In this document: positions 8,755 to 58,856 of the stretch, piece by piece
How the letters are laid out: every line of letters starts with the position of its first letter
Position numbering within the stretch: position 1 is the first letter of the stretch
Assembly: GCF_038025025.1 (NCBI RefSeq)
Contig: NW_027117350.1
Location: 1,178,001 to 1,242,000, forward strand
From: Phyllosticta citribraziliensis
Lineage: Eukaryota
Length of the DNA stretch: 64,000 nucleotides
Direction of reading: 5' to 3'
The notes under the pieces: model-generated
Told to the model about the DNA's origin: nothing
The model's database searches: none
Seen by the model: the letters and a program-made list of their open reading frames with translations, nothing else
Program-made: the position numbers and the translations under genes

Positions 8755-8923
8755 GCTGTTTGTGATACGACTCAGGCGTATCATGGCCAAGGTTTGACTT
8801 TTGACTGCTCGGGACGGAAAGCGAGCGACAGATAAATCATTGAACAGACTTGGAATAGCGGTACGGCGCATTCACAACTCACTTTCAACTCAGAATCGTC
8901 GCTCCTCCATCCGATCCGCTACC

Positions 8924-16900: not shown

Positions 16901-17296
16901 TTCGTTTTCCTCGTCTTCCACATTCACCATGACCGTGTCGGGAATCTTCATCCGTTTTCCGGTATAGACGGCAAGCCCGGAGCAAGTCCTGCCCAGAACA
17001 TTGTCAATTCGTTCCCGCGGCCACTGGTCGCGGTCTACGGGCACATAGGTTGCTCCCGCCTTCAGTATGCCTAGCACTCCGACTACCATGTGCAGACAGG
17101 AGCTCGTGAGTATGGGAATCACGCAGGACGGGCGTGCTCCGGCTTGTCGCAACCGCCGGGCGAGGGACGACGACCGCTTGTCCAAAGCGCGGTACGTGAG
17201 AGTTTCGTGGCCATCCTGCACAGCAATGTTGTCCGGGTAATGCTTGCAGATGTTCTGGAAGAGTGCAAGCACAGTTGGAGAAAGCTTGCGAATCAT
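10915..17296 (-). CDS. gliP: Two-module NRPS, GliP/SirP-like diketopiperazine synthetase (A-T-C-A-T-C)
   Basis: A1: FTSGTTGEPKG, YGPTE, YRTGD, GRRDRTVKIRGFLVNL. T1 'GLHSL'; C1 'HHALIDG'. A2: FTSGSTGKPK, YRTGD, GRRDRQIKMRGFRINL. T2 'GGHSV'; terminal C 'SHIICD'. Several short introns at about 13170-13720 and 16645-16700. Confidence 0.93.
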
Positions 17297-17456
17297 GGCG
17301 AAGGTTTGAGGCTGGTATGGTGGTGAACCAACGGCTGCATGTCACTGCTAGCCGCATACACCCTATTTAACACAAGGTTGCAGCCAACGCCTTGTTCCAG
17401 ATAAACTTGAATTCCAGGCTGGGAAAGTGATTGGCAGGAACGACGCGGCTCTTTGG

Positions 17457-17580: not shown

Positions 17581-18989
17581 ATGGCCCTTTCCGAGCGGAT
17601 GCGTGGCACTGTCGAGAGTGTCATGCCAAAGATTGCTACCCAAGTTGCCCAACGAAGCTCTAGCAACCCTCCCATTGATTTCAGCACAGCAGAGAATTGG
17701 TTGATTAGACCAGAGCTGGTAGAATTCTTCAAGGATGCCATCGGAAAGCGCCTTGTCAAGCAGGTCAGAAGCCAAGATGCTCTCCCCGAACAGTTGTTTT
17801 GACGCCAATGCAGGATTTGTCGTATCAAAAAGGGTTCGCGGGCGATCCCAATGTCATAGCAGCACTATCAGATGCCTTCAACAGGCTTTTCGCTCCCAAG
17901 ATTCCCGTGGAACCGTCTCACATTGCAGTCGGACCGGGTGGAGCAGCCATTCTGGAGTCACTGTTGATCAACATATGTGATGCCGGAGACGGGATGCTGG
18001 TTTTGGCACCCTTTTGGAGTAAGTGTTCGACACTCACCACACCGCACATATCTTGCTAACCGAAGTCCTCCAGGCGGCTTCCACTTTCAATTCGACGTCG
18101 GCCCAAAAGTCGCCATCATACCCGTTACATCACCAGAGGAAAACGTGTTCAGCGAAAAAGTGGTTGACGATCTCGAAGCAGCCCTCGCCAAAACGGATAA
18201 GAAAGTCAAAGGCGTGGTCCTCTGCAATCCCCATAACCCGCTGGGCCAGTGCTACACAAAGAAAGCTCTGGAGGCCATTGCCGTCTTCTGTGAGAAGTAC
18301 GATCTGCACCTCATCTCGGACGAGATCTATGCCCTCTCAATCTACAAGTCGGCAGATTTGGCCAACCCGGTGCCGTTCTTCTCGGTGTTGAGCTTGGATT
18401 TGGCGCAGATCAAGGTCAATCCCGCCAGAGCTCACATCATCTGGAGCGTAAGCAAAGACTTTGGCTGCAGTGGATTTCGACTGGTGAGATGACCTTGCCG
18501 ACCGAGCTTGTTTGTGTTGTCTAATGTCTCGCAAAGGGTGCACTTGTCAGCCAAGGGAGCCTTGCCATGGCATGTGGAGTTGCCATGGCTGCCAACACGC
18601 AGGTGTCCGGACTCACTGCTGTTGCCGTCACAGCGCTGCTCTCCGACCCGGCAGTCACGGACAGCTTCATCGCATTGAACAGAGCCAGATTATCGACCGC
18701 ATATGAGACCATGGCCAAGGTATTCCGCACCCGCGGTATGCGATACATTCCTGCCAACGCTGGCATCTACATCTGGGCAAAGCTGTCCAACAAAGTCGAG
18801 TCTTGGGAGCAGGAGGCCGACTTGACCAAATTGCTGGCAGAGAAGGAGGTCGCTGTCAGCGCAGGCAAGGGGTACGCCGCCGCCTCTCCGGGCTGGTACC
18901 GGCTTTCTTTTGCCATGGAGCCAGAGGATCTACAAAAAGGGCTTGAGCGACTGGTACGAGGGATCGAGCAGTTTGAAAAGGATCCATGA
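17581..18989 (+). CDS. gliI: PLP-dependent C-S lyase (aminotransferase class I / ACC-synthase-like), GliI-like, 4 exons
   Basis: 'IDFSTAENWL', 'LCNPHNPLG', 'HLISDEIYA', PLP lysine 'SVSKDFGCSGFR', 'GWYRLSFA'. Confidence 0.9.
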
Positions 18990-20661: not shown

Positions 20662-21658
20662 CTATCTACCCTGTTGGACTTGCATGGCGGCGCCATTTGC
20701 AGCAAAGAGGCCCATGGAGATGCCAGATGCCACCACCTTGAACGGGCTTGCGCAGTCTCCTGCGGCAAAGACACCCGGCACATTCGTTTCGTTGAAGGGA
20801 GGGTTAATCTGGAGGTCGAGACCAGGAGTCAGCTCGACACCGAGCTGCTCCGCCCACGGACCATTCAACCTGCTCCGCGGCTTGTGGGCGACGAAGCCAA
20901 ACACCTCCCTCGCGCCATCTTCAAACTGGACCTCAACATCGGCGTTGTCGCCCGGCACCTTCTTGAAGCGGATGATCCGTCTCGAGTCGACCGTCAAGCC
21001 CTTTTCTGCCGCCGCGGTTGAGATTTCCCGCGTCAAGGCCGTGTTGCCGTGAGTCAGGACAGACACGCTCTTGGCCAGGCGCTGTGCCATGCAACCAACG
21101 CCGATCGAATGCATCAGATCCGCCATGTCCTCGACGGCCAGAACGCCTGCCTTGGACGCTCCGCGCTCTTCATAGCCGTGGCAGAACAAACAGTGGTAGC
21201 TGTCGCAGGCGTGTTAGTACATTTATCAACATCGAAGTGGAAGAAGGAGCGTGTCTTTACATTCCATGACCCCAGCACTCATCGTATCCAGCTATCTCGG
21301 GATACAGGTCCTCAGAACCCGTCGCCAGGACGACCTTTTTTCCCGTGTACTTCTTGCCGGCGTCGTCAACGGCCTCGAAGCCGCCGTCGGCCAGCTTGGC
21401 CAGCTTTTCGACCTTTGCGCGAACGAAGCGCGTGGTGTTGTACCGAGTTGTCAGGTCTTTGCGCGCCGCCTCGCGAAACTCTTCCGGGTTCTTGTGGTCC
21501 CAGGTCGGGACGTTGTGCATGTGGGCGGCGCGGGCATTGCGGTAGACGCCCGAGTCGAAGACGATGCAGGGGTGCATCAGCCTGCTCAGAGCTGTGGCTG
21601 CTGAGAGGCCGGCGGGACCGCCGCCAATGATGAGGACGTCGACGTCGTGGGAGGCCAT
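20662..21658 (-). CDS. gliT: FAD-dependent dithiol oxidase / thioredoxin-reductase-like, GliT-like, 2 exons
   Basis: 'VDVLIIGGGPAGLSAA', 'VVLATG', CxxC 'YHCLFCHGYE' across intron 21200-21260, 'ETNVPGVFAAGDC'. Confidence 0.92.
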
Positions 21659-21833
21659 TTTTGTTGGTGTTGTTGCGGGACGATGGTATTGTTCAAACGA
21701 TGACAACAAAGCACGAGCGCGAGGGAGAGCTCTGGATGTACGAGTAGTAACAGCAAACATGCAGAGCAATATGGCAGCTCTGAAAGTTTAATATGATTTC
21801 TCCACGCAGGGTTTGCGGTCCGCTCCGCTCGAC

Positions 21834-22820: not shown

Positions 22821-24872
22821 ATGTCAATAGGGTATGCACTGGGGGCTCCGCCCTTGGATGAGCGCCTTGCCATGCCTGGCCTCTTCATTCCGTCTTTTTA
22901 CATCGTTTTGATATTCTCCATCCTGATTCGTCCCGCGATTTTGCGCAAATTCGTCATCACGGCTGTGATTTTGTCCTACCTGGTCGCATATTTTCACTAC
23001 ACTGCTGGGATCGACGCAGACTATCAGAATACGACCATGCTGCTTTCATCGGCCATAATGTGGGTCGAATTCGGAGTCTTTCAAGATCTTGAACAGGGAC
23101 AGATATTCCGGACATGGGAGACAGAGGAAACGCAAGTTTCAGACCGACCGTGGTGGAAGAAATTGGCGTGGAGCTACGATCTGTGGACGTCGTGGCGCGG
23201 TCCGGGGTGGAACTGGCAGTCCAGCCGCTCGCCCAAGCTACCCACACATGTGACGGATCGCCGGTGCGTGTTGTCGGGACTCGCAAAGATGATTCGGGTT
23301 CGCTCTGGCTGATGGCGGGAACAGAAGTTTTCTGGTGGACAACTTCAAGCGCGGAATTTACTGCTGGATCATGAGCGATGCTCTACTCTTTTTGCTCGAA
23401 TCGACTCCGTACACTCGCCTTGAAGAGCGCCAACATATCCAAGCCGCGCCGATCCACGTGCAAGCAGCCGTTGTGTGGCTTGCTGCGCTCCACACACAGT
23501 ACAGCATGAGCTTCATGTACCGCATCGTCGCCTCCGTCCTCGTCGCTATCGGGGTTTGTTCGCCAGTCCAGTGTCCGCCGTTATTTGGACCCTTCCGTCG
23601 CATGTACACCGTCGGTAATTTGTGGGGTATCTGCTGGCAGCAAATGATGAGAAGAGTAGGTTTCCAATCGTTTGGTAAGACTCTGCGGTAAACTTGACTG
23701 ACGAGGCTTCGGTGGCTTCTAGTCAATCTTGCTGGTGCCAAACATGGTCGTTTCGGGGTTGTGCATCAGCGGAATCGCAGCAAAATACACTCGTGTGCTG
23801 CTCTCCTTCGCAGCTTCCGGATCCATGCATGCGGCCGGTGCATACAGCGCGACAAGAGGTTCTCTTGGAGATATGCGTTTCTTCATGTCTCAAACGCTTG
23901 CGATCATTGCGGAAGACTGCGTCATGTCGCTCGGAAAGCTAGCGGGCATTCGAAAGTCAGGCAAGTGTCAATCTGGCCCCTCGGCAACACGACGTACTGA
24001 CTTCAATTGTTGCAGCATGGACCGTTTCCCCATGGATCAATTACGTCCCACAGATTCGCACCTTCGAAAAATCCTACAACGGCCGCGCCGGGTCCCTTTA
24101 TCCGGCGTGGGAAGTCTTCAACGCCTCGGGCGCCTCGGCTTCATGGGCCAACCCAGTGCTCCCCACCAACGAAGAATCCATCGTCTGTCGCCGCCGCATC
24201 CGACGCGGGCATCGGCTGCTCATCGCTCTCTGGCACCCCGACCGGGCTTCGCCGGCTACCAATGGATCCGTCGGCGGTCTCCGCACGCTGCTTGACCTGT
24301 CCAACCAGCAGCTGCGTGTTGTCAGCCAAATCATCCAGCAAGCCTACAATGACGCCGTTTTTGGCTGTATGACGGCCGCCCAAAAGAGCACCTGGCTCAA
24401 CCACCTGACCGCCAGGTTACCAGCCGAGTGGGACACGCTCGACGCGTTTGACGTCACCAGCGAAGATATCGTCGATCGCGCCGACCCGACGGACATGGGC
24501 CTTGACCTCACGACACGCGAGTATGTCCACGTCACGCAGTGCATGGAGCGCGAGGGGGTTCCGTGGGAAGTGGCGCTACACAAGCTGCGGCAACAACGCC
24601 GTACTCTGTGGTTCCGGTGTAAGATGGTGGTTGAGCAGGTGGTCAGCGTGCTATCAGGACGAGCAGGAAGACACCAAGATGAGTTTCGTCATCCAGGGGG
24701 ACCGGCTCTCGAGCGCACGCTGCGCAGGCAGAGGGCGCTTGAGAGCCTGATGGAGCGGACTGGCGCTCTCAACGGCTGCTTAGACACTGGAGAAAAACAG
24801 ACGCGGCCATGGTGGGAGAGGAAGGATTTTGACCCTTCCATGTGCGGAACTAAACCGTTTCACGCTGCGTAG
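22821..24872 (+). CDS. MBOAT/wax-synthase-family O-acetyltransferase (SirH/AtaH-like), apparently spliced in frame to a J-domain-like C-terminal exon
   Basis: 'WRGPGWNWQ', 'PPLFG..YTVGNLWGICWQQMMR', 'FAASGSMH', 'FFMSQTLAIIAED'. Introns 23264-23324 and 23656-23722, plus a GC-AG intron 23961-24015 that keeps frame into the ORF ending at 24872. Confidence 0.72.
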
Positions 24873-29777: not shown

Positions 29778-29923
29778 GAATGGCCTTCTCGCTGGCGGGA
29801 ATCATACTCGCTGGCGGGAAAGGCAACTTGCTGGCGGGAATCATACTCGCTGGCGACAATGGGCATTCTCGCTGGCGGGAACCATACTCGCTGGCGGGAA
29901 TGGCTTTCTCGCTAGCGGGAATG
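29778..29923. repeat. Palindromic minisatellite array 1 (7 x ctcgctggcgggaa)
   Basis: Core repeats every 19-22 bp. Confidence 0.9.
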
Positions 29924-32320: not shown

Positions 32321-32927
32321 ATGCCTTTGAACACCAGTAAGTGCATCGCATCATTACCAGCGAACAGATAATGAACGCGTGCTAGATCAACACCAAGTCC
32401 ATACTGCACGGCAAGAGCAGCTGCAAGACTCGGCTCGACGCGGGCTTTCGTCGTACGCCAAAGCAGATCCAGAACTTCCATGGATACTGGCCTTCTACGC
32501 GTCAATCATCATCAGCTTTCTCCAGCTAGCATGCTTCGTCGCCACGGCCTTCTGCCTCTGCAGGGCCGTTAGAGACGACATCAAGCTGGCAGAATTCCAA
32601 GTCGCAATCGACGCGCTGGCCAAGAAGATCAAGTGCTCCGCGGACTACTTTGAATACGGCTGCGACGGACCGCGCATGCCTGCGATGGAGAACGGGTGCA
32701 TGATTTGGGAGCTGTGCATGAAGAAGGATGTAAAGATGCCACAACTCAGCAGCGCGCGCGCGATGGCCATCGTGATCAGCTCTTTTGCCGGGTCCATCTC
32801 GTTCAAGACCTTGGCCATGTGGGTAGTCGCCGGCGGCCTTAATCTTGTCCTTCTACGTTATCTCGACAGCCCTCCTTTCACGGCTCCCCGTCGACAAATG
32901 GCTGGCAGCCGCTGTTGGAAGTGCTGA
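32321..32927 (+). CDS. Brr6/Brl1-domain nuclear envelope protein (short, divergent), 2 exons
   Basis: ATG at 32321; intron 32337-32385 restores frame. TM helix, 'VRDDI', four-Cys loop C-SADYFEYG-C..MPAMENG-C-MIWEL-CM, then 'ARAMAIVISSFAGSISFKT' and a second TM helix. Confidence 0.8.
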
Positions 32928-34969: not shown

Positions 34970-35106
34970 ATTGCCGCCGGCGGGAATCATACTCGCTGGC
35001 GGGAATGGGCATACTCGCTGGCGAGAATGGATGAATGCCGCCGGCGGGAATCAAACTCGCTGGCGGGAATGGATGTCGCTAGCGGGAATGGCTTTCTCGC
35101 CAGCGG
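34970..35106. repeat. Palindromic minisatellite array 2 (about 7 cores)
   Basis: Same core and orientation as array 1; preceded by gtcacgtg at about 34954. Confidence 0.9.
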
Positions 35107-40169: not shown

Positions 40170-40765
40170 GTCGCTGGCGGGAAAGGCAACTCGCTGGCGG
40201 GAATCATACTCGCTGGCGGGAATGGCCCTCTTAGTAATCACCTTCTTTCTTGCTGGTGGGGAGGCCATTCCCGCTAGCGAGTATGAATCCCGCTGGCGAG
40301 AGAGCTGGTCACGTGAGCGAGGAAGCCATACTCGCCGGCGAGTATGCTGGTCACGTGAGCGAGGAAGCCATACTCGCCGGCGAGTATGCCGGTCACGTGA
40401 GTGAGGAAGCCATACTCGCCGGCGAGTATGCCGGTCACGTGAGCGAGAAAGCCATACTCGCCGGCGAGTATGATTCCCGCTAGTGAGTGGCTGAGTCACC
40501 CGCTGGCGAGTATGCCGGTCACGTGAGCAAGTGGCTGAGTCACCCGCTGGCGAGTATGGTTTCCGCTGGCGAGTATGCCGGTCACGTGAGTGAGCAGCTG
40601 AGTCACCTGCTGGCGAGTATGCCATTCCCGCCGGCGAGTATGCCGGTCACGTGAGCGAGAAAGCCATACTCGCCGGCGAGTATGATTCCCGCTAGCGAGT
40701 GGCTGAGTCACCCGCTAGCGAGTATGATTCCCGCTGGCGAGATTGCCATTCCCGCTAGCGAGATT
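40170..40765. repeat. Palindromic minisatellite array 3 (3 forward cores, then an inverted block with 42-bp units)
   Basis: Unit ggtcacgtgagcgaggaagccatactcgccggcgagtatgcc; 7 CACGTG and 4 TGAGTCA sites. Confidence 0.93.
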
Positions 40766-43700: not shown

Positions 43701-46700
43701 TTTGCTGGGCCGGCGCGTTGGAGTCGCGTTTCGGTAAGTTTGGTTTGCGACGAGGCCGTCGTCGACGAGAGAAGGTTTTCGTAGTGCATTTTTTGGGAGG
43801 AGAAGTCGGCGCGTAGTACAGCGACGGTTTCTTCCAGCTTTTGCGCGTAGGTGAGCTAGAGTTGAGGCGATTATGGGCGCTTGATAAGGTCTGTTTGGGC
43901 GGCCTGAGCGTTGGTGTCGCGCTCGGGCGAGGTGGGCTAGGCGGGCGAAGTAAAGAATCTGAACATTGCGGCCGTCGACCCCATGGAACGGGCGAGGCGA
44001 AGAATCTGAACATTGCGGCCGTCGACTCCATCGAACGCACCCAGCGGGTGAGGGTGCTTGTTCTCGTTGCTGCACCATGTCGTGGGTTGTAGGAGTAGCC
44101 GTTGTGCTTTGGCGTACCGGTAGAATCAGACAAGTGATGGTGAGGTGGATGCGATGAAAGAAGAGCGTCAGCGGATGTTGTGATTGATGATGGAGGAAGA
44201 AGAGGAGAGGAGGAAGAAGAAGAAGAAGAGGAAGAGGAAGAGGAGGAAAGCCCAGGTCGCCAGCTCGTCACTCCCTCCGTCTCCCCCGCCTCGTCGCCTT
44301 CGACCCGCTCGACCCATCCATCTTGCCTTTCTCAGCCAATACCGACAAACATCTGCCTCTCGGTGGCTGCCGACAACGAGAAGAGATGCTCCTCAACCAC
44401 CGCCGAGCCTCTCAACCTTCTCATCTGGCGCTTACCTCTCCTCTCCTCTGTTCGTCTCGTCCCTGCTCCTGCTGCTGCTGGATACTAATGTTGGCCAGAA
44501 GAACGACGTGAACAACTTCCAACCGTCTTCTAGATCGTGCCGGCCTTGGCTGCGGCGGCTTCATCTTGCCCGCTCGTCCCCGCCGGAAACAACTGTCGAG
44601 GATCGACTACCCACCAAGGTTCCATGATCCAAACGAGGAAAACGCGTTTGTCGACAACATCGCCCCAGCGTGGCACGTCTTTGGTGCTTCGGACGCCGCG
44701 GCCTTGTGGGCCAACCTGCGGCTCCTGACCGACGCAAAATCCGCCCAATGTCGCTACCGCATCCAACCGCATCGTTGCCAGGAGACTCTGGACGCGGCGG
44801 CGACCGAGGAGCTGGTCTAGCTAGAGACGCAAATCATTCGACTCCCTGCCATGCAGTGGAGTAGACGAGGGGAGTCCCATCTACGGCAGGGTGGTCCTGA
44901 TCAGGTCAGACAACGTCACCGTCAGTCCATCAGGCCCCGCCGGCGGGCGCATTCCTGGACGCTTGACGACTCGAACTTCATCCCTCTCACTTTCAATTCA
45001 CGACCCACCACCCTCAAGTCTCGCCAAGTCCTCCAATGTCTCCGGTCCCGCCGTACTCTCTCTGCTCCGCGCCACCCAGCGCCTGCTCAAACGCCTCAAC
45101 GCTGCTATCGGCTCCACCGCACAATTCCCGACCACTGGGGACTTGGGGCGCTGAATGCGCAAGACGTAAAGCACCGCCGCAAAAGCCGCCGACGGTCTAT
45201 TGGAATCGCCGGACAGGTCAGCTCTAGGTACACCTCCCCTTCAAGTTCTCTTTGCATGTCCGGCCCAACTTCATTCTCCGGCTGCCCAGGTATGCTTCCC
45301 GCCGAAGCTCCCCTCTCCAGGTGTGGTGCTCATAGGGGCACGCCATCGAGGTCATGGCACGATGCCAACGGCGCTGTTCGCAAAGCGCGGCCGCGTGGTA
45401 TCGCCGCTGCTGCTACTGCCATCGCCAGCGTGGCGCTCTCGCACACGTCGCCCGGGGCTCGCGAGGTCGTCAACGGCCGCCGCGCCGCCATCGAACGCTC
45501 CTCCACCTCCACACCAACAACCACCTCCACCCACGCTGCCGACACAAGGGCATAGCGAGCCCATCATCAAATGCCGTCGTCAGCGCCATCAGGCTCCCAG
45601 TCACCCCAAACACGGCTACAAATAGCAGGCCTTCTCGGCCAACAGCGGTCTCGATCTGGAAGCCCTTATGATTTGGACTACCACCTGACGCCATGCGCGC
45701 GCTACGAGCTCGCGCATGACCATCATGCGTCTACTGCTTATGCTCATACTCACAAGGCTATGATATCCCGATGGAAACTGCATGCCTGCCTTCCCTCCAA
45801 GTCTGTTGCGCGTGCTACACAAGATGACGACAAGGAAGCGAGGGCGCGTTTCCCCGGCAGAGGAGGGGACAGTGCTGTGGCGGCAGATGGTAGCACCCGT
45901 CAGACACTGAACGAGGCCGAGAGAGGCGTGCGGCGGTTGACGAGAAGCGTGGGAGATGTTAAGAGAGCACCAGGACCATCGGCTTGGCATGTTGGTGCGA
46001 AAAAAATGGTTGACAGAGGTGGATGACACAGTTCTGGGGGCTGACAAGTGCACATGGCTTGTTATTCTGACCAAATCCTGCTCATGGGACGATCCGGCCG
46101 TTGTTCCCAGCAGCCACCGTGTTTGAGAGATGAGGCGGCGGCGCTGTCAGGCGCGTTGCCGACGAAGTCGGGACGACCCTGGCGCACTGTTGATGCTGAT
46201 ATTGCTATTGCTAGAGTCCTCCAACCTAACATCAATGTCATTATCACTTTCAGAGCCTTGCTTCGCTCTATTTCCAAAATAATCAGCCCAGGGGTCTACT
46301 GGCTTCCGTTTGGCATGGGAGCTGGATTGTTGTCAGGTTTGCTGGACTTCATCTTGATCGCTGCGGTGGTATCCTCAGGCTCCCTCTCGACGTCTTGCTT
46401 GACAAGCGGTTCTAGCTCTTTGATGGCATCGCCATTATTATCTGCAGGGCCAGTGAAGACCTCCTTGGGGCACCGGAAACGCGGTCGAGTACTGCGGTGA
46501 TGTCCGTCAGTGCCGCCGTAATTCATTATATTTTCTCTATGTAGTGGTGGTGATGCTTTGATTTGAGCCACGGGCTGGGCTTTTTCATTTGATATTCATC
46601 CATAGCCCTTGTTCCTCCTCCTCCACCCCCCATCTCCCACTGATTGCCCGACTCTTCTGTGCACAACAGTCACCAAGTGCCGTTGAGCCCGCGCTGCCGT

Positions 46701-49396
46701 CTGGAGGCTCGTGGCTAAGACTCGATCGAGCTTCCTGGCAAAGCGCGTGAGGTGCTCGTGCGCGCAGCTGCTTCGCGTCCCCCCCTCCCCCCTTTTATCA
46801 TACTCGGCAACCAGCTGCGGGTGAATTTCCTCTTCCCGCTCCATAGTCGCGGCGTTTATGGCCGGAGCGAGGCCAGGCGCGGGAGGCATCATCTTCCGTA
46901 ACTCTCTTCCCGGTCATACGAAGACAAGCGCGGATTGAGCGAGCGTGGCGGGCCTGGCAGCAAAAGGTCAGTCAGTCAGTCTGCTAAGTAGCAGGCAGGG
47001 CTCGACTTGCATGACGCCACCGATGGGGCCGTCATACTCCTCGCCATCAACACCAGCAGCAGCAGCAGTGGTCGAGCTGCCATGGCGACCGTCAGTGCGG
47101 ACGCTGCCTCTGACGACTCTTCGTCGGCTGGCGTGCCGGGCCCGCCGGCCATGGCCGTACCGCTCTCATCATGCCTGATACTCGCGCGTCGGCCAAAAAA
47201 AATTGGAAAGGGGCCGTCGCGATACATAAATGCGGCGCGCGCAAACTCGAAGTCGCACCAAAGCTCGTCGTCCTCGGGCGGCCACACGCGGCCTCAGCAA
47301 CTAACTCTCACGAACGACGCACCGGCTCGGAATTCGACGGCCGCCTGGCCGGCCCACCATGGCGATGGATTTGCTGTGAAAGTCCACGTTGGCGTTGGTC
47401 TGCACGCGCTCATTGATTGATCCAGCTGCGCAGGTGTTCGCACTGTACTGGTCGACTGGATTTTGGGCAACAAGTCCTTTGTCAGTGCGGTGCGCCTTGT
47501 ATGGCCGTACCAGCAACAGCGGAATCTGCAATTAGGAGCTTCATGATGAGACAGTCTCTTGTACTCTCGTGAAGTTGTCCTTTTGTGGAAGTCGACCTTT
47601 GGATTCGGCCTCGTCTCAGCCTCAGCCTTGACAACCTTGCGCGCGCGCACATGCCGAGGAAGATGAAGACGCTAAAGTACTTTTTTTTAGGCGTCGTCAT
47701 CACGCTCAAGGGCTCGCTTGAGCAGCTGTAGAATCAGGTCGAGAAAAGTGGCGTCCGGCTGCTTGATTTCCGGCCTCTACTTGGCTGTGGCCGAGTTTCA
47801 CGACCAACTAGGGGCTGAGCGCGCACGTCCTGGTCGACAGTAGGCCGAGGGATGGTGGGCCACGGCTTTTGAATTGCTTGCTGCAGTCTTTGGTCCAATT
47901 ATGATGCGCTGCGTTTTGGATTCGGGCAGGCATCAAGATGCCAGGCAATTTCTTCGAGAGGCGAGGAGACGTGATGATGATCGTCAGCCACGCGCTTCGA
48001 CTTCTAGAGACGGCAAACGATTTTAGCAGCATTCGTGTGGGCCCATGGCCGGAAAGACAAGCTTCGTAGTGAGCCGGTGGGCGGGCCATCATCATCCCTA
48101 TAGGGATTCTAGTGCGCCGCGGCTGCTATTTCTTCGTCGGTGGTGGTGATTAGATGACAGTCCCAGCGGTTGAAGTCTCCCGTTTGCCTAGAGCGGAATG
48201 CGGAAGAGGGATCAATGTCCACAGACTCGATCCCGTCTTGACCAACCACAGCACTAAAACTTTTCAAGGCCAATCTCGACACCAGCGTCGCTGGCCACGA
48301 CCAACTCCAGCTTGTAGACACGTCAGAGGCTCTTTAAAAAGAGCACAAGATGGCCGGGCATGTCGTCTATGGGTCTGGAAGGCAGGACACGAGGTACTGG
48401 AATGATGAATTGGGACATGGTTTCAAGATGGATCTTTGGTTATTTGCGGGCGGAACCAGCAGCAGCATTGGAGAATGGGACGGGTTGCTGGTACTCGAGG
48501 GGAAATCCAGAATTTGACGTGCATATGCCATTGACGGGGAGGACCAAATAGAACATTTGTTTCAGGCGTTTCGAGCTGGATGTGTGCGAGACATGATTGG
48601 GACACGAAGACTGACCACCAGGACAGTCATGGCCAATTCAAAGACTCGGACTCGGACATGGCCTCTCTTATTCCCCGGCTGCACCATCATCATCACCACC
48701 AGTTGTGCGCCCAATCCACCGCTTTTAGATCCATCGGAGGCCTGACCAAGACACGTTGTCCCACCACTGTCCATTCAATCGATGTGGTGCTGGCGGCCGA
48801 TACCGAGTCGTGGGGTTTCAGGCTGTATGGATTGAGAAAAGGCGGCAGGAGGAGGAGGAGGAGGAGGAGGCGGCGTTGATACTGTGACAATCAGTCGCAA
48901 ATGGCGACAGCACAAAGTCCATAACTTCAGGCGCTGCGGTCCTTGAGCCACGCTGCAAGCCGTCGACACAACGCGGCCAATCTGGCGCAGCTGGAAAACC
49001 AACGTACTTTGGCGACACCTGATGATACTGAGACTTCCAGGTTGTACGCCCTCTTGTTGTTGAACTTGATTGTGCAGTCCGTCTCGTTTGTTCCCCAGTG
49101 TCATCTTTCTCTCTGAAGCTGCGTGACAGTGCGACAGGGGTGCGATGGTTGCCGGAGCGAGACTGTCCCCGTGAAGTAGCCATCGACACAATCTCGGGTG
49201 ACAGGGCATCGTGACGCGGCCGCAGCTACTGGAGGAAGATGAAAAAGCAATGATAGAGATGGTAGTGATGGCGACGAGGGATGGCCTTGGTCGTGCTGGT
49301 GTTTGTGTTGAAGTGTCCAGTGAAGGAAGTGGAGGAGAGCTTGTCGGAGAAACGTTTTGCTAGCACGTCCAACATGCATGCATGTCTCGACGACGA

Positions 49397-50327
49397 CTAG
49401 GAGGTTTGTGAAAGGCGGTCCGAGGCGGGTATGCTCAAATTCCAGTCTGTCTTCTGCCCCGTGCGGTCCATTTCCGCCGACGCCTGCTGCAGCACCGCCT
49501 CGAGCACTTGGCAGAGGCGCCTGCTCTGAACCCCCGCGTCTCTGGTGAGAGCCGTCTCTGTCTGTCGGAGCTGGAAGCTCTGTGCGTCGAGTGCGGCCGC
49601 GAGCGTATTTGCTGTGTCCGCGTCCACTTGTCTTGTTGGCCGCGACAGCGCGAGCGTGTAGCTCCAGCTCGCCGCCACATGGCGTCCTCGGAGGCGCTGG
49701 TGACTTTGGGGAGCTTCACCGAAAGCGGCGACAGCTGCGGGGCAGTGTTGTGCTTTGAGCCAATCTTCTTTGGTTGGATGTGCTCCGCGTGTTTTGGCAG
49801 GGCGCCATTGCTGAGCTCTGGGGGGCCGGAGATCCACTCGTGAATGAGGAAGAGAAGAGGCACAATGCGACACAGGCAAGCCTGCCTATCAAGCACTGCT
49901 GGAGCCGAAGCCGCGTGAGGTAGACCGCATGGGCTGCGAGCTGGTGTGGAAATTGTGAGAGCCGAACGAGGCCTGGCGCGCCTGCGGCGCTGGGTACCGC
50001 GCGTACAGATGCTTCTTGGCCGGGGACAGGTGAGGTCTGCAATGCTCGTCTGCGAGGCACCCGTGCGGGCGCCAAGCGGACCTGAAGTGCTTCGGACCTC
50101 CTGTGGTGTGCCGGGTGTAGGCGTAGCAGTGTGGGCGTGCGACGGTTGTGGCAGTACTCCAGAGTCGCCTTTTGGCATTCTTGGTCGGGCTGAGAAGTTG
50201 GGGCAGTACTTTCGATGACGCGAGCGTTGTCGGGCTCGATGAGGCGCTGCAGTTCGGCGAGATGGTGCGCGAGTTCTGGCGGCGGCAGCGAAGACGTATG
50301 GTGGTGGTGGTGGTGGTGGGCCGTCAT
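49397..50327 (-). CDS. Hypothetical (possibly disrupted) gene divergently transcribed from the CenH3-like gene
   Basis: ATG at 50327 (MTAHHHHHHH..), continuing into the helical ORF that ends at 49397. Exon structure uncertain; no family recognised. Confidence 0.35.
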
Positions 50328-50635
50328 GGTCGTTTCGGTCGAGGATGATGGCCTGGGGCGACGACCGTGTGAGCGTCGAGCATGACGCGCAAGCAAGCGA
50401 GAAGATGAAGTGGCAAGGAAATGCACAGGAAGTGTGACACGGAGTGAGGGAGTGAGGGTAGACGCAGATGGATGGACGGACGAAGAAAACGACAAACCTA
50501 CCGACATGTACAGGCTGGCACCTGCGGCTTGTTTGCTCCATGCCTGAGGCCGAGAGCGACGACGACGATTGTCTACATATTTAGTTTCTTGGACCTTCAT
50601 CAACCTCTTTCGATCCTCCATCCACTCAATCAAAA

Positions 50636-51148
50636 ATGGCACGATCCAAGCTCGGGAAGCCGTCGAAACGAAGCCTCTCACAGCGTATGTCCGACAACAC
50701 CACAGCCAACACACTGCACATTGCTGACACACAGTTCGCACGCGCAGCTGGCGACCCCACCCCTCGGCCGCCGGTCAGGCGTCGCAAGTCCAGTGCCGTT
50801 GCCATCAGGGAAATCAAAGCATGCCAAAAGTCGACCGACCTCTGCCTGCGCAAGCTGCCCTTCTCCCGCCTGGTCAGTATGCCACAGACACAGCCACACA
50901 CACATACACACAACTGACCAACACGGTACCAGGTGCGGGAGATTGCTCAAGCAATGACGGATGGCGCCAGCGGGGTGACGCGGTGGCAGGTCAAGGCGTT
51001 GGAAGCGCTGCAGGAGGCGGCCGAGGCGTACCTGGTCGGTGTGATGGAGGACACCAATTACTGCGCCCAGCATGCCCGTCGCCAGACTATCAAGCAGGTT
51101 GACATGCAGTTGGCGAGACGGATCCGCGGTCGGTTTGAGGCCCATTAA
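50636..51148 (+). CDS. Divergent centromeric histone H3 variant (CenH3/CENP-A-like), 3 exons, 129 aa
   Basis: Exons 50636-50684, 50748-50872 and 50933-51148 give [129 protein letters not shown]. Confidence 0.85.
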
Positions 51149-51393
51149 CAGTAATTCCGTCCGCGGCAGCGGCACAACATACATTGGTTGATTGGATAGA
51201 GACAAACCGACAGGGGAGAGGGAAGCTCTACAGGAAGGAGAGGAGGCTTGCGGCCGTCGAAGATGGGGATAAGCACTGAATTCATGCAGATTGACGTGCG
51301 CTGTGTGTGCTTTAGCTTCTTGTGTGAATCTGCCCAATGTCATTGAATGTAGTAGTATCAGCAGACTAACCCAGACATATGACTCGCCACTAC

Positions 51394-52275
51394 CTAAGCA
51401 AGCTCGTCCTCTCCGTCCTCCTCATCATCATCATCATTATCATCATCATCGTTCAGCTTCTTCACCAGCCGGTTGTACTGGGTAATGGCCATTGCCTCAG
51501 AAACTCCCAGCTCTTCCGCAATGCCTTTGAACTTGAATCCTTTGCGGCGTTGGCCCAGGAGGTGGTCCTTTTCGGCCTGGGTCCATCTTCGGTATGATTG
51601 ACTGTCGCCACCGGTGGCCGAGCGACCCTTCTGGACGTCGTAGAATCGTTGCCTCGCTGCTTGCAGCGTGCGCCCGGGCATGTGCGCTGGAACAATCTCT
51701 GCCCACGGCACCTTCTTGTCCCGCAGCTCTTTCATCCTCGCGTCCTCCTCGGGGGTCCAATTGCCAAATTTCAGGGCGCTGGCGTCGATGGGTTCGATGC
51801 CTTCCTTGGTTGTTGTCGTGATGGCGGGCCGAATCGGCACATTTGTTGTTGTCCTTGATTCGGAAGAGTGAGTATGAAGCATGTCAACAACAATCGACCC
51901 TTGGTGAACTTACTCGTGCTTGTCCTCTTCTTCTGCCTCGACATGACTGTCCATCCTCTCCTCGTCCTCCTCGTCGTCCTCTTCGCCCTCCTCTGCCTCC
52001 AGCGTGTCGTCCATCCTTTCCTGCGGGGTTTCATCTTGACTGCAAGCGTCATCCCAAGCCAGAGCGGCGAACGGCCCCTCCTCCGGGTAATCTTCCATGC
52101 CTGCAAGGTACCCGTGGTCTTGCACCAGATCGCCAGTCGCCAAATCCACCACGTCGTCTGCGCCGTCACCGTCGTCTCGCGCATACTTTGCGAGGAAAGC
52201 GTCGGTGAAAATAGCATCTGCCCATGCTGGCGGCAGCAGCGGTGATGGCGCTGCGGCCTGGTCGTGGGGAGGCAT
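51394..52275 (-). CDS. Scm3/HJURP-domain CenH3 chaperone fused to two Myb/SANT repeats, 2 exons, about 273 aa
   Basis: Exon 52275-51914 has 'FLAKYARDDGDGADDVVDLATGDLVQDHGYL' (Scm3-like KY..D.IDL.TGEIV.DNGHL) and an acidic tract. Intron 51854-51913 keeps frame. Exon 2 has 'WTPEEDARMKELRDKKVPWAEIVPAHMPGRTLQAARQRF' and 'WTQAEKDHLL..KFKGIAEELGVS'. Confidence 0.78.
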
Positions 52276-55200
52276 CGAGTAGGATGGCGGTTGATGGATC
52301 TGCAACGATCTGGTTTGGCGTGAAGAACGGAGGAGGTACTGGCGAAGGAGTCGTTGTTTGCTGCGTCATTGTTTGCTGCACCTAGCTAGCTGGGTCTTGT
52401 GCGGAACCAGGCAGTCGGCCAGCTTGCCCCCAGGAAATCCCTTCCCACGAGGCCACACGAGGCGTTTCGCGTCGAAGGCGGAAAGAGTCGGCGCCAGTCT
52501 CTTCGCATGATCAATGGTGTGGGTTGTTGAATATTCAAGATTATTGGATCGTCTCGTTCGTTGGTGTTGACGGTACCACCGGCGACGAGCTTACCTTACC
52601 CCTTTGGGTTTGGCGCGTCGGCGCGGCCGACCCCGGCTGTCCACCCATCATCCCCGCCCCTCGACGCGACTCTCGCAACTATCTCCATCCCAACTCTCCA
52701 CACCCACCAGAAGCTGTGAACGCGCCTGAATCCACGCTTGCTTGCGCCTCCGGCAACGCCACCCGTCTCTCGCGTCTTGCAATCTACCGCCTCGTGTGCT
52801 GTCGCTTTTCGCTCGATCCGTCCAACCCCACCATCTCGTCCGTCAAACATGCTGCCGCAGCCCGAGGGGAATACACAAATACAGTTGGAGGTCGAGGGTA
52901 CATGAGCTGTGCTTGGATAGCACAGTGAGGACAGAGGAAGAGATGGAACAAGATTGATTCTTTGGATTGGCCACGACGCCTACCGTGTTTCGCCTTTGCT
53001 CGACGTCGCTCCGTATGCCAACGACAGCCGCAACAACCTCTGTGTCTATTACCGTGCGTGCGCCTGTCACGATAGAGGATGGAGCATGTCCTTTGACACG
53101 TTGACGCCAGGGCCCATGAGATGTATCTCTCTCTCGTCTGGCTCCCCCCTCACAGCTGTAAAGACGGAGCACGCTTCGGCTTCGAGGTCCGTCAGCTCTG
53201 GCGTCATTATTTGCTTCGAAGTCGTCGGCTTGAGGTCCTGCAGCTCCGGCATCATATGCTTCTTTATGGCGGAGGCGGCGAAGGTCCTGCAGCTCCGGCA
53301 CCATCCGCCTCTTCATGGCGCCAAAGTCGTTGACGCGGAGTTTGGGCTCTGCCTCTACCCCCTCTCCCGCCTCCTCCATCCATGTTGCCTTTGAGGAAGA
53401 CGATGGCCACGTCCTGCCTTTCATTGTCGCTGCCCAGGTATGGGAGCTGTGGGCGTAGTTCTGAGAGGACCCGATGGATTACAAGGCGATAGATAATAGA
53501 GGCCAGGACCTGAATGAAGGCGCGCGTCGGAGAAGGCGTGGCGGCAAGTCAAGCAAGCTGCTCTGCATCGTTAACATTTATACCAGGAGTCAAACAACAC
53601 ATGTCTACGCGCTCAGAATGACTGCCATCTGATCCGCCGCCGTTCTTTCACGAAAGACTCGGGGTCGCGACAAAAGAGCAGGGCACACCGCCCAACCCTT
53701 GAAACAGCCTGCCTTCGCCTCCTCCATGCAACCCGTGTGAAGCTTTTGGTCCATCCATGACGATCCTCGATCTCTACCTGGCTGTTCTTTCGCGGTGCCG
53801 AGCGTGGCCTCATCCAACTTGCGACCCTCCTTTTCCAATGCGCCCGGACACCTCCCACCTTTCCCACGGCGCTCCATCATCCGTCTCCATCCAAGCCCTC
53901 TGGCAATGAAAAAAACAGACACAAGGGATTTGGCTTTACACGGGTCTGTCACCACAATCGACAAGCGACACATTAAATTCCATCTTCCTCCCATCATCCA
54001 CCCTCGAAAAGTCTCTGCACACGAGCATCAATCAAAAGCCGCGAAGAGTTACTCCGTCGAGTTCCAGTATCGGCTAGAAGCCGAGCCTGACAAGCTCAAC
54101 TCTCGGATCCCTTAGGACAGCCGGCGCGTAATCCGCAGCAGGAGGCGGGACATCGGCGGAAAAGGAGTAGTGCATGGCCGACGGGGGATGCACAAGGGGC
54201 ACGTCAGTCGTGATGGTTTCCAGCCGCATGGCAGACCGCACGGTCCAGGCAAAGGCGTTGGCGTAGCCGTCTCCGCGGTGCATCAGGCGGCGCGACCTTG
54301 GGCGCGTCCCGCGCGTGTCTGCTGCGACGCTGAACGGGCTCCCCAGTCGTCCAAGCATCTTGTGCGGCGTTTGCGTTGTTGAAAGCCACTCCCAGTAGCA
54401 GTGGGCGCATGCGCAATGGGGCTGGTGGGAAATTGCTGGGTTGTACAACGGAATCCATGGATTAATGATGGGTGCTTTGTAAGGTTGAGAGCGGCTTTGC
54501 TGTTGTGTTTATGCTTAGCTTTCGTCTAACTTGCAAGTTGTTTTGGTGGTGAATACCCTTGAACGTGTGCTGCCCTTGGCAAACTGCAGGTGCTGGGTGT
54601 GTCGCGGCATTTTGAGTCCGCGTCTTCAATCTGAGCGGTTGAGGAACAGGATGGTCGCCAGGTGAGGAGGTGAAGACTGCTATATGTATCATTTCTCCTT
54701 TCTCTTTTCTTTCCCCATCAAACAATTAATGACAAGTCTAATGGAATTTGTTTTTAAGGCGAATGAGGCGCAAGCGGGGCCGCCGCTTCTTTCTTTTTTG
54801 TCAAGTGGCCAAAAGCAGTAACTCTGAGCGTCCACATCATGATGATCCATGCACAGGAAATGAAGGATGTTTGCGTCTGTAGCTGCGCTAAGCAGGGGTT
54901 TGCCCCCGCATGCATAGAATTTGTGGAGTAGAACTGAAACGGGAAAAGGAAAGAAAGGAAGAGATAGGGACTGGTAACAAGTTCCGCCACAGCCTTCGTC
55001 CTCCACCTCATGAATATCAACTGAGAATCGTTGCTGAAGGCCTAACGGTTGACATTGGCAGGCGCTGTCTCTTCCCACGCTCCCTTGTCCCCGTCGCGGA
55101 TATCCATCTCCGTGGCCCCAAAAGACGATATGGCGCGTGGAAACGCCGTTGCTGAAGCTTCTGAGGCTCCGAACGCCCCAGAAACCTCTGTTTCTTGCTG

Positions 55201-56399
55201 CGGCGCAGTCTCTTGCGCTGGTAGCTCGCGGTGGTAGTTGCGGCTGTGGAAGCGTCGGTAGCAGCAGCAGCAGCAAAGCGGCAGAGGCTGTAATTGGGAT
55301 AGAATGGGAGGAATATGTGGTGGTGGAAGCGTAGATGGGACCTGCCGATGCAGAGGTGGGATGCTGAGAAGGACGAACGAGACCAGAGGGCTGACCGATG
55401 GGAGACCTACCTAGGAAGCAGGGGTTTCTATGGGAGTACGCCGGCGCGATGAAGCGTCGTATCTCGTTTTGCGGCTGGCTGGACCACATGCCATTCATCA
55501 TCCTTTTCTAACGACAAGCACGCCAGCTCCTGGCACGCTTGGAGTGACACCACGGCCCACCAACTCATCCAGTATTCTTGGCTAGGCCTCTTTCGACGGC
55601 GTCTGCATACTCGCGATCGGGGGTTTTTGTGCGCCTCGAGGAGGATGTTGATCGGCTGTTGACGTATATCCCAGTCAACCTGGACCTATGAAATGTCACC
55701 GGTGCGGGCGAGCAAAAGGTTCTGCTGCAGCCTCTCTGAGGATGCGTCTGTGGCCGCCTGGCCGACCGTATTGGGAGCCTTGACAAAAAGATGTGTCGGC
55801 TCAGCGAGAAGACCCGCGGCTCGACCTCGAACCAAGTGCGACCAGCGCGTTGTTTCCGGAACTGTGAGCGGGCTGGATTGAGGTCTTCTGATGCTGCTTG
55901 TGTGGGCGCAGTTGGAGCGGTGCTGGTGGTGGCGATGCTAGGTTTCGACCCGGGGCCAGGCTGGCTGTTGCTGTGGGTGGTTTTCTCTGCCATCATGACG
56001 GGCGGATGAGGACGAGGACCTAAACCCTTCAGCCAAGCAAGCCGCCACCCCAGCCGGGCAGGTAGTCTCAGCCCAAAGTCTCCTCTGTCGTCGTGATGTA
56101 GAACCGATGGAGCAACTGGCCTGCGCCAAGCCGCCAGCGCAGTTGGGAGGAGTCATTGTCGCCATTTTTGCTGTGCCTGCAATGGCGGTGGTGGCAGCGG
56201 CGGCTCAGGCGTCGTATGTGGATGGCACGGCGAGAGAAAGAGAAAGAGATGTTCGCGCAGTTGAGGCGGGCGTGGGCGTGGGAGCGGGCATGGTGATGGA
56301 GGTGACGGCACGGTACAGTAGCGCGCAAGGATCTGTTGTATGCAGCGGTAGGGAGAAAAGCTAGGTCCAGGTAGCAAGGTAGTGCTTATGTAATGTCGT

Positions 56400-56730
56400 T
56401 TCTCGCTGGCGAGTATGGCCATTCCCGCTGGCGAGTATGCCATTCCCGCTGGCGAGTATGCCGGTCACGTGAGCGAGAAAGCCATACTCGCCGGCGAGTT
56501 TGCCATTCCCGCCGGCGAGTATGGCGGTCACGTGAGCGAGTGGCTGAGTCACCCGCTGGCGAGTATAATTCCCGCTGGCGAGTATGGCCATTCCCGCTGG
56601 CGAGTTTGCCATTCCCGCTGGCGAGTATGCCGGTCACGTGAGCGAGAAAGCCATACTCGCCGGCGAGTTTGCCATTCCCGCCGGCGAGTATGGCGGTCAC
56701 GTGAGCGAGCGGCTGAGTCACCTGCTGAGA
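56400..56730. repeat. Palindromic minisatellite array 4 with a 169-bp higher-order duplication
   Basis: Same modules and orientation as the main block of array 3; ggtcacgtg at 56463 and 56632, gagtatggcca at 56411 and 56580. Confidence 0.93.
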
Positions 56731-57040
56731 TAACTAGCGGGTCCGGTCCGGTCCCATCGCGTTCGGTTCCTTCAGACGGTCGCGGTGTCACGTGATTTCG
56801 CGTTGCGGGCCGACCTGGAGTCTCTCAGGGACCTGAGGTGAGGTCGCGTCGGCAGGTCACGCACTGCTACTGAAGGTAAGGTAAGGTACATGTAGTGACA
56901 CCCTCTCTCGCTCCACTCTCGTCCACTTCATCCATCATCGATCGCTGCAATCCTCCCGCCGCCTCGCCAGCTTCACCCTCATCGCCCGCCCCTGCTCCCC
57001 TTATCCGCCATCCATCCGCTCGCTCACTGCACTCGTCCGT

Positions 57041-57400
57041 TGGAGATGCTTGCTCAGAGAAGTACTCCTCCCGCCGCTTCACTCCTTCAGAGCTGTACTG
57101 ACTGGTACGCTTGGAAGAAACACCTCACCGCTTGGCCGCTGTCCTCTGCATTCGAAGCCGTCCATCTCTTGGCTCTTCCATGGGAGATGCTTCTCAGACA
57201 AGTACTCCTCCCGCCGTCCTCTCCTTCAGAGCTGTACTGACCGATACCCGACAGGCCGGACTCTACGTTGAAGGAAACACCTCGCCGCCCGGCCGCTCTC
57301 CTCTAAGCCTCAAAGAGGCGCTCCTCTCTTCGTGCGTTCTTCCGAACTGTACGAAGTCTGCATCAAAGGAATCACCTCGCCGTCTGGCCGCTGTCCTCAA
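57041..57400. repeat. Degenerate tandem repeat of about 140 bp (2-3 copies) within a decayed ORF
   Basis: ggagatgctt..aagtactcctcccgccg..tccttcagagctgtactga..aaacacctc..ggccgct recurs at about 57042 and 57183, and partly at about 57345. Confidence 0.75.
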
Positions 57401-58856
57401 ATCCACCAATCTTGGCCCTCCAAGCTACACTCCGACGTTTCCGCGCTGTTGTCCTGGATTGCCTTCTGGCCCACATCATTTTCCTCGGCATACATCAAGG
57501 ACATCTTGGGCACGGTGAGATGGGCGACCATTCCCAACAGCCATCATGGCCTCAAGGTTGTTTTGCCGCAAGGCTCCGTTAACAGCTTCTCAAAACTGAC
57601 TGACTACTACGCGCAGGATATCCCCTCCGCGGGCTCATCGCGTCATCGGTATCGCTCAAGTTGCCTCAAAGGTCCTCGTTTCGTCGTCAGCAGGGGTATT
57701 TCCAGAGAATTACGCCTCCCTCAACCTCACCCTCTCTCGTTTATACTGATTTGTAGGTTGCAAGTCTTATGTCCGCACCTAACCCTAGCGAGGCAGATCG
57801 GACGATGCGACGCGACACGACAGAAACCGGGCATTGTCTAATTCCAGCCATATACATGTTCACTTCAGCTTCTTCCCTCCTGTCCCCCCCCTCTGTTTCT
57901 GTGCCGGGTCATCAGCCCAAGATCGCGAACCTCCTCGCCGTTCTGACAAGCTACCAGGGGCGGCAGCCGGCCCTGTGTGTTTCACTGGCGAGGAGAGAAT
58001 GCTGGGGGTCGCTTTGAGTCCTCGATGAGCCTCGACAGCGGACAATTCACCGGCAAGCTCACGAGCTGTACGAGCCTCGCCTCGCCGTACGTCGTCGATA
58101 AACGCCTACGAGCTTCAATAGGCCGCTACCTCAAATTTCATTTCGATGACATGAAGGAATTGGAAAATGGCACAAGGACGCGAGGAGCCGGGATGTCCTG
58201 TTAGCGGTGGTGTAGGTTGAGGGACGGGAGGCGGAAAGCAACATCGTCATGCATCTAGAGAACATAAAATCCACTCAACCTCAGATGATGCCTTGACCTG
58301 CCTCTGGGATCTTGACAGGTCATTCGATTAGTCGGTTGTGGGCGCACGATCTGCCACGGCGATGCGCTGCTTGCTAGCATTCGGCTTCTCGATGACCCAC
58401 AAAACACGGCTCGTGCGTTGGCTGGAGGACGGAGAAGGGATGATGGACCGTGGATGGATTAAGAGACAACGTCATAATCAGTGTTGGTTAACGGAGAAGA
58501 GCGCGGACGAGAGATAAAATAAACTACCCTACCTTCTTCTTCTCCGTGCACTTCAACTTAGCCCTTCTCTTCCTATCTCTACCGCTCATCTTGCTGCACA
58601 TAATAATAAAGAAGACGCCGTCAGCTAAGATTTAATCAAAGATGAGGATAAGGAAGTAAAGCAGGTAGTCCTACTAATGCTGCTAGTGATTTATTAAGGT
58701 AGGGAGAGCGAGTAATTATACTAACTATAACACTATGTCATGCTATAAATATAGCCGTCTATGAGAAAAGCCATCATGGTAGTGGGTGCCACTTGAATTT
58801 GTTTGAGGGTTGGCCGAGATCACGGTTAGTCGGGAGAGGAGGTTAAGGGTGCCTGA

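Follow-up and report, generated by a model that had tools for sequence, protein, structure and literature searches.

In fungi, the centromeric histone H3 variant (CenH3) and its chaperone Scm3/HJURP are regarded as single-copy, co-dependent and essential. Paralogs of both the histone and the chaperone are known mainly from insects, CenH3 paralogs occur in plants as well, and meiotic conflict is the explanation given for them. Aravind, Iyer and Wu reportedly noted in 2007 that fungal Scm3 can be fused to Myb or other lineage-specific DNA-binding domains, and Maddox et al., in the same year, are said to have described KNL-2/Mis18BP1 as CENP-A assembly factors with a Myb/SANT domain. Here we describe a gene pair from Phyllosticta citribraziliensis, an endophytic, citrus-associated fungus, found in a window of 64,000 nucleotides (positions 1,178,001 to 1,242,000 of contig NW_027117350.1, assembly GCF_038025025.1; all positions below count from the first letter of this window). 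The pair consists of a gene for a CenH3-derived histone (H3v) and a gene for a small protein that joins an Scm3 domain to two Myb repeats (Scm3-Myb). On balance, we favour the view that this expressed, lineage-specific pair is a private histone-deposition module working beside the canonical CenH3 system, its histone having arisen by DNA-level duplication from a centromeric H3 and evolved fast since.

H3v resembles the canonical fungal CenH3s (Cse4, Cnp1, hH3v) in its H3 fold, long loop 1, RWQ and PGDPTP motif; it differs from them as an extra, diverged copy with a short tail of ~30 residues and without the W-G-x-L-G tail. Scm3-Myb in turn carries the PF10384 domain of canonical Scm3 with its W, KY, acidic/hydrophobic run and D-x-G-x-L, while its length of only 273 amino acids and the physical linkage of histone and chaperone genes set the locus apart from the canonical partners. 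In mosquitoes, paralogs of CenH3 (Cid) and of its chaperone (CAL1) are co-retained, according to the abstract of Kursel, Welsh and Malik 2020 (PMC7306699). As summarized there, the mosquito and Drosophila Cid-CAL1 case shares with the present pair duplicated centromeric histones under different constraints together with a duplicated chaperone in one lineage. It differs in concerning animals, in being explained by intralocus conflict and tissue-specific expression, and in that the abstract does not describe gene adjacency, whereas the fungal genes lie 245 bp apart and the second copy of the chaperone is putative. A C-terminal DNA-binding domain in a fungal Scm3 is documented, in an excerpt of PMC8015856, for C. 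albicans, where it consists of C2H2 clusters. Like the large fungal Scm3s, Scm3-Myb has its Scm3 domain at the N-terminal side and its DNA-binding modules, in this case two Myb repeats, after it; unlike them, it is compact, adjoins a histone paralog, has a decayed counterpart at another locus of this species and is absent from public annotation. KNL-2/Mis18BP1 likewise bring a Myb-type domain into the CenH3 loading pathway, but they have no Scm3 domain and work upstream of the chaperone, whereas in Scm3-Myb the chaperone and the Myb repeats form one protein. Our literature searches found no fungal CenH3/CENP-A paralog with a linked chaperone among the papers listed; the original prediction that no such system had been described was nevertheless too strong, as both the co-retained mosquito paralogs (PMC7306699, abstract) and fungal Scm3s with DNA-binding domains (PMC8015856, excerpt) are known. 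We read the pair as a lineage-specific variant of known histone-variant and chaperone types.

The two genes, predicted originally as intact, spliced and tail to tail with a 245-bp gap, were confirmed in coordinates and structure (Table 1). They are convergent, each retains an intact reading frame, none of the six splice sites is damaged, and the Scm3-Myb frame contains no internal stop. The spliced H3v gene reads letter for letter as P0003, a public protein annotated 'histone H3 [Phyllosticta citribraziliensis]'. The introns present in both genes led us to reject a retrogene origin and favour DNA-based duplication over retrocopies.

Five public runs contain part of the stretch, and contigs of four of them were aligned to positions 44000-58000. 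Two of these runs, X1 and X2, come from separate studies of one organism (A); they are only presumed to be RNA, and their contigs give neither strand nor transcript level. One X1 contig joins 50684/50748, 50872/50933 and 51853/51914, which are exactly the three predicted introns, and an X2 contig likewise joins 51853/51914. As the predicted introns are missing from these contigs, we conclude that the two genes are transcribed and that their splicing follows the models. Moreover, since the X1 contig crosses the 245-bp spacer, the 3' ends of the two genes converge closely or overlap. A further run, X3, from a second organism (B), provided 98 contigs spread over all 30 bins of 44-58 kb, mostly 90-95% or less than 90% alike, so that this organism has the whole 14-kb stretch, both genes included. 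The H3v coding sequence of organism B has at least four differences; of the four listed, three are synonymous and one is a change of S to T, which we take as a hint only. Run X5 yielded only a few short pieces on the stretch. Just upstream of the H3v start, an X1 contig also joins a 149-nt minus-strand intron (50352-50500, CT..AC on the plus strand); it belongs to a divergent transcript running downward from 50327, in which a His7 tract follows the first ATG (MTAHHHHHHH), and a short bidirectional promoter region is common to H3v and this transcript.

The first Pfam scan used the translations of the four single exons, and the whole H3v protein was scanned separately. The H3 fold anticipated in the original prediction is borne out by a Histone match of 1.8e-30 (106 bits) over the whole protein and 6e-18 (65.7 bits) for a single exon; the Scm3 and Myb profiles that were to be searched along with it were matched as well (below). 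Across all nine aligned H3 and CenH3 rows, H3v included, 46 columns are invariant. By blastp, H3v is closest to P0089, another protein of P. citribraziliensis (138 bits), followed by the CenH3s of Dothideomycetes (P0113, P0114, Venturia hH3v and P0124; 131-137 bits) and of basidiomycetes (~124 bits), and scores 107 bits against canonical H3. Its best solved relative is S. pombe Cnp1 (123.9 bits), with every H3 at 104.6 bits or less. In the details of the sequence, loop 1 is four residues longer than in H3; RWQ is present, as in the CenH3 rows; Q occupies the only position of the fold at which the five CenH3 rows can be told from the two H3-like rows; and a QPGDPTPR motif just before the alpha-N helix is common to H3v and the CenH3s of Phyllosticta and Venturia. 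The N-terminal tail is divergent and lacks ARTKQTARKS. A metagenome scan with an H3v exon returned 335 relatives, the best 80 of which (56-74% identity) are ordinary H3-like genes on environmental contigs.

All five canonical fungal CenH3 rows end in G-x-W-G-x-x-x, the W-G-x-L-G tail, whereas H3v ends in GRFEAH and P0089 in GD. The C-terminal tail of CENP-A is the part that CENP-C recognises and through which CENP-C is recruited. Because this W-G tail is missing, we term H3v a CenH3-derived histone rather than a CenH3; the hallmarks originally predicted for it stand in part, in that the protein is closer to CenH3s than to H3 and has the longer loop 1 and the PGDPTP motif, but not the tail. A first tree, which included the P0121 fragment described below, was distorted by the junk flanks of that fragment, and a second tree was used instead. 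In the latter, H3v groups with P0089 (support of 86 in the Shimodaira-Hasegawa-like approximate likelihood ratio test) on a long branch of its own (1.06). Sixty columns show no variation in the seven rows other than H3v and P0089; P0089 is changed at 7 of them, and six of these 7 are changed in H3v too, two of them alike (L to C and L to Y).

A regular CenH3 is conserved in Phyllosticta, and H3v exists besides it. A 156-amino-acid CenH3 (P0114/P0124) is present in P. capitalensis and P. citricarpa on 14 contigs, is more than 90% conserved and falls into one 90%-identity cluster; H3v is 61-64% identical to these proteins. H3v (P0003) itself is named only from P. citribraziliensis, on three contigs of which the longest measures 2,469,777 bp, and the protein is identical in three assemblies. 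The same species has an intact third CenH3-like protein, P0089 (136 amino acids), and two mis-models annotated 'hypothetical protein' on other contigs, of 1.72 and 1.28 Mb: in P0121 (714 amino acids), part of an H3v-like fold (Histone, 36 bits) is present, altered by a helix-breaking change, and P0001 (562 amino acids) includes an Scm3 domain (26 bits) that is 93% identical over 54 amino acids. P0122, a Logan fragment of 72 amino acids, matches the linker region of Scm3-Myb with 76% identity. Together, the separate 156-amino-acid CenH3 of the genus and the further copies of histone and chaperone in P. citribraziliensis uphold two elements of the original prediction, namely that the histone is a second copy and that both genes have been duplicated.

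The chaperone was predicted to have an Scm3-like motif, an acidic linker and two Myb repeats, and all its Pfam matches lie above their cut-offs. Scm3 (PF10384) is matched in exon 1 with 2.1e-8 and 34.1 bits (cut-off 24.3), over profile positions 18-53 of 53 with the first 17 unmatched. In exon 2, Myb_DNA-binding (PF00249) is matched with 1.4e-6 and 28.7 bits (cut-off 24.4) and Myb_DNA-bind_6 (PF13921) with 1e-5 and 26.1 bits (cut-off 22.9). In or just before the Scm3 domain, the translation shows W18, K30-Y31, the acidic/hydrophobic run DDVVDL and DHGYL. These correspond to the features listed for the domain in excerpts of Hollis et al. 2026 (PMC13001451), which are the Trp of Dikarya, KY, alternating acidic and short hydrophobic residues, and D-x-G-x-L. 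The best solved relatives of exon 2 are the c-Myb repeats (7.2e-6; R2 for repeat 1), and a single-sequence AlphaFold2 model of this exon consists of two three-helix units, with a mean predicted local distance difference test (pLDDT) of 60.6 and ~85 in repeat 2. The top rows of a Foldseek search with this model were R2R3-type Myb domains, none of them at E <= 0.001. Codon bias of the two exons is 0.375 and 0.291 bits per codon.

Searches for relatives of Scm3-Myb returned little. A phmmer search with exon 1 against 1.84 billion representatives gave three matches and no full-length relative; the three were the P. citribraziliensis mis-model, the 72-amino-acid fragment and a repeat protein without an aligned stretch. 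Word-based protein searches confirmed the Scm3 part in 1 of 635 candidates and the Myb exon in 0 of 1399 among longer proteins, an ESM Atlas search with the Scm3 exon gave no usable match, and none of 591 pattern matches from a metagenome scan with the Myb exon was confirmed. A PDB sequence search with the Scm3 exon matched only a WD-repeat protein (E 0.082), which was rejected as chance. A canonical Scm3 could be too diverged for detection by one short domain.

Modelling of the Scm3 domain together with H3v and a stand-in H4, cut from a nematode protein, gave a score of 0.37 against 0.11 for the best of three controls; since complexes of this kind have been solved, the score may reflect likeness only. 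At least 60% of contacts recur between the runs, and the partner pLDDT is at least 47. Of 78 solved complexes, 51 attained the mark used in this test, as did 2 of 108 mismatched pairs; at values of 0.60 or less, only 5 of those 78 complexes attained it, and so did all 4 passing mismatches (of 180). The result hints that the Scm3 domain may pair with H3v-H4.

The data presented above have led us to propose, as the simplest and most likely model, that the N-terminal Scm3 domain of Scm3-Myb would capture an H3v-H4 dimer, the acidic linker would shield the histones, and the Myb repeats would direct the complex to DNA for assembly of a nucleosome with H3v. Binding of H3v by Scm3-Myb, its deposition and its genomic target are proposals in this model. 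Such nucleosomes more likely mark or modulate chromatin than build a second kinetochore, as the missing CenH3 C-terminal tail makes the seeding of a kinetochore less likely than a modulating or new role in chromatin.

Several observations weigh against a private deposition module. The presence of the 156-amino-acid CenH3 in P. citribraziliensis itself is something we infer, and Scm3-Myb could be the only Scm3 of this fungus. The full Scm3-Myb gene was not found in public protein sets, those of P. citribraziliensis included, and its absence from the sets of other species therefore says little. H3v departs from the seven other rows, with P0089 set aside, at 13 of the 60 columns in which those rows are invariant; the P-G-T that precedes alpha-N is among the losses, and these changes could represent relaxed constraint. 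The phylogeny suggested in the original prediction joined H3v to P0089 but left its deeper placement loose, as neither a position with the Pezizomycotina CenH3s (p of 0.42 in the approximately unbiased test) nor one with the H3-like rows (p of 0.16) was rejected. In organism B, finally, likeness over the Scm3-Myb gene is ~95% and that of the flanks 85-97%; as the gene is no more alike than some of its flanks, purifying selection is not demonstrated.

The alternative that survives best, and which we hold to be credible though clearly the less probable, is that Scm3-Myb is the one regular Scm3 of the fungus, built in the usual fungal architecture, with a young CenH3 duplicate beside it by chance and no dedicated second module. 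C-terminal DNA-binding domains are common in fungal Scm3s (C2H2 clusters in C. albicans, excerpt of PMC8015856), the Scm3 domain is well formed, and the gene is well expressed (the runs presumed RNA) and syntenic in organism B. Myb fusions are reportedly among such domains. However, none of the three phmmer matches represents an ortholog assigned to a different species of Phyllosticta, and an essential single-copy gene would not usually have, in the same species, another locus whose Scm3 domain is 93% identical. Furthermore, at 273 amino acids the protein falls far short of the size of the large Scm3s of filamentous fungi.

Beyond the pair, the window falls into two parts. Positions 1-24300 hold a secondary-metabolite gene cluster (Table 1), the make-up of which recalls epipolythiodioxopiperazine-type clusters. 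From 24.5 to 64 kb, with open reading frames overlapping the pair left out, Pfam matches were found in 1 of 75 open reading frames of at least 130 amino acids and in 0 of 201 of 75-129 amino acids. The single match is a Brr6-like island (nuclear envelope / pore biogenesis) at 32331-32924, with PF10104 at 1.1e-18 and a codon-bias score of 0.196; it could be the regular copy of this essential nuclear gene or a further paralog. The long open reading frames of the flanks have a codon bias of -0.12 to +0.09 bits per codon, compared with 0.17-0.38 for the four exons of the pair and 0.11-0.29 for reference genes; a sliding codon-bias map was too noisy to delimit flanking exons. Within 44-58 kb, spliced X1 and X2 contigs cover the flanks, with introns at 53054-53110, 54500-54556, 57062-57117 and 57555-57614, among others, and the flanks are present at ~90-95% likeness in organism B. 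Their transcripts may be non-coding or come from orphan genes. Of the 49 X1 contigs aligned on 44-58 kb, 20 are less than 99% alike, which indicates expression also from diverged copies of portions of the stretch. The content of guanine plus cytosine is even, at 0.50-0.62 across 24-64 kb, with no break in base composition, and none of the 404 open reading frames scanned over the window has a recombinase, transposase or reverse-transcriptase domain. Within a large contig, the pair forms an island of coding sequence in surroundings that are transcribed but poor in domains, and it is not evidently accessory or mobile. Its surroundings had been described as decayed sequence; this holds for the scarcity of domains and the lack of codon bias, but not for the spliced contigs and the conservation in a second organism.

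A tandem unit of ~21 bp, built on the near-palindrome CTCGCYRGCGRG, forms four clusters in the window, at 29788-29919, 34992-35067, 40190-40762 and 56402-56688. CTCGCYRGCGRG has 44 matches against 0.14 expected, and some units are 20-bp perfect palindromes. In the two largest clusters, GGTCACGTGAG, with a CACGTG core, has 11 matches against 0.02 expected, all on the plus strand. The arrays bracket a 15.7-kb segment that holds the gene pair; the one at 56.4 kb is flanked by units that are transcribed divergently, and its length differs from contig to contig. They may be arrays of transcription-factor sites.

Table 1. Positions of the gene pair, its parts and the genes of the secondary-metabolite cluster in the window
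Feature	Position	Strand	Details
H3v gene	50636..51148	+	Exons 50636-50684, 50748-50872, 50933-51148; ATG at 50636; product 129 amino acids
H3v intron 1	50685..50747	+	63 nt, GT..AG; contig joint 50684/50748
H3v intron 2	50873..50932	+	60 nt, GT..AG, in-frame TGA inside; contig joint 50872/50933 (aligned 50871/50932, cut +1)
Spacer between both stop codons	51149..51393		245 bp; unbroken in one X1 contig (record 50932-51852)
Scm3-Myb gene	51394..52275	-	ATG 52275; exon 1 52275-51914, exon 2 51853-51394; product 273 amino acids
Scm3-Myb intron	51913-51854	-	60 nt, GT..AG
Scm3 domain	52090..52200	-	Residues 26-62; PF10384
Acidic linker, E/D-rich	51914..52020	-	~Residues 86-120, from translation
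Myb repeat 1	51637..51765	-	PF00249 1.4e-6; exon-2 model helices 34-45, 50-57, 63-74
Myb repeat 2, then acidic tail	51421..51585	-	PF13921 1e-5; helices 92-103, 108-115, 119-137, pLDDT ~85
P450s	695-1384, 7019-8511
ABC transporter	4513-6282
O-methyltransferase	8798-10199
Two-module non-ribosomal peptide synthetase	10918-17341
Aminotransferase	17968-18986
Pyridine-nucleotide disulphide oxidoreductase	20665-21787
MBOAT_2	23293-24292

It is improbable, in our estimate, that both genes are recent duplicates in decay, still transcribed and functionless, within a locally duplicated, eroding and gene-poor compartment. Decayed copies of both genes do exist (P0121 and P0001), the surrounding 40 kb are without coding signal or domains, the 20 of 49 X1 contigs below 99% likeness point to diverged repeats, and the H3v branch is as long as 1.06. 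Against this stand the intact frames and six splice sites and an H3v protein identical in three assemblies, as well as a codon bias in the four exons as strong as that of reference genes. Moreover, H3v retains 47 of the 60 family-invariant columns, and three of the four differences listed for organism B are synonymous. Least probable is the proposal, made in the original prediction, that an accessory chromosome or giant mobile element carries the pair and is maintained, or driven, through centromeric chromatin which the two genes seed for themselves: the domain-poor, repeat-related stretch adjoining a secondary-metabolite cluster, the dispersed copies of both genes and the palindromic arrays bracketing 15.7 kb (in principle putative protein-binding sites) would fit it, but an accessory or mobile origin is made less likely by the 2.47-Mb contig that carries the gene in one assembly, the synteny of 44-58 kb in organism B, the lack of any recombinase, transposase or reverse-transcriptase domain in the 404 open reading frames and the even base composition, and a centromere or drive of its own is unsupported, as H3v lacks the C-terminal W-G tail found in five of five canonical fungal CenH3s, which is the CENP-C-binding part in CENP-A.

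A private module for histone deposition beside the canonical CenH3 system could be taken a step further, in a form that we consider possible but rather unlikely. A self-contained, linked cassette, duplicated and dispersed in Phyllosticta and made up of a tailless CenH3-derived histone and a Myb-targeted Scm3 loader, would write a new, sequence-targeted nucleosome mark or compete with canonical CenH3 loading, and the 21-bp palindromic arrays would be one candidate target of such a mark. If true, this would be the first instance in fungi of a CenH3 and its chaperone having been taken together into a new role in chromatin. Meiosis being symmetric in this fungus, its expressed CenH3-derived histone with a linked Scm3-type loader, along with the additional intact and decayed copies, would offer a simple, genetically tractable system in which to address how a histone variant and its chaperone diverge together, whether a DNA-binding chaperone is able to redirect a CenH3-like nucleosome, and what follows from the loss of the CENP-C-binding tail.

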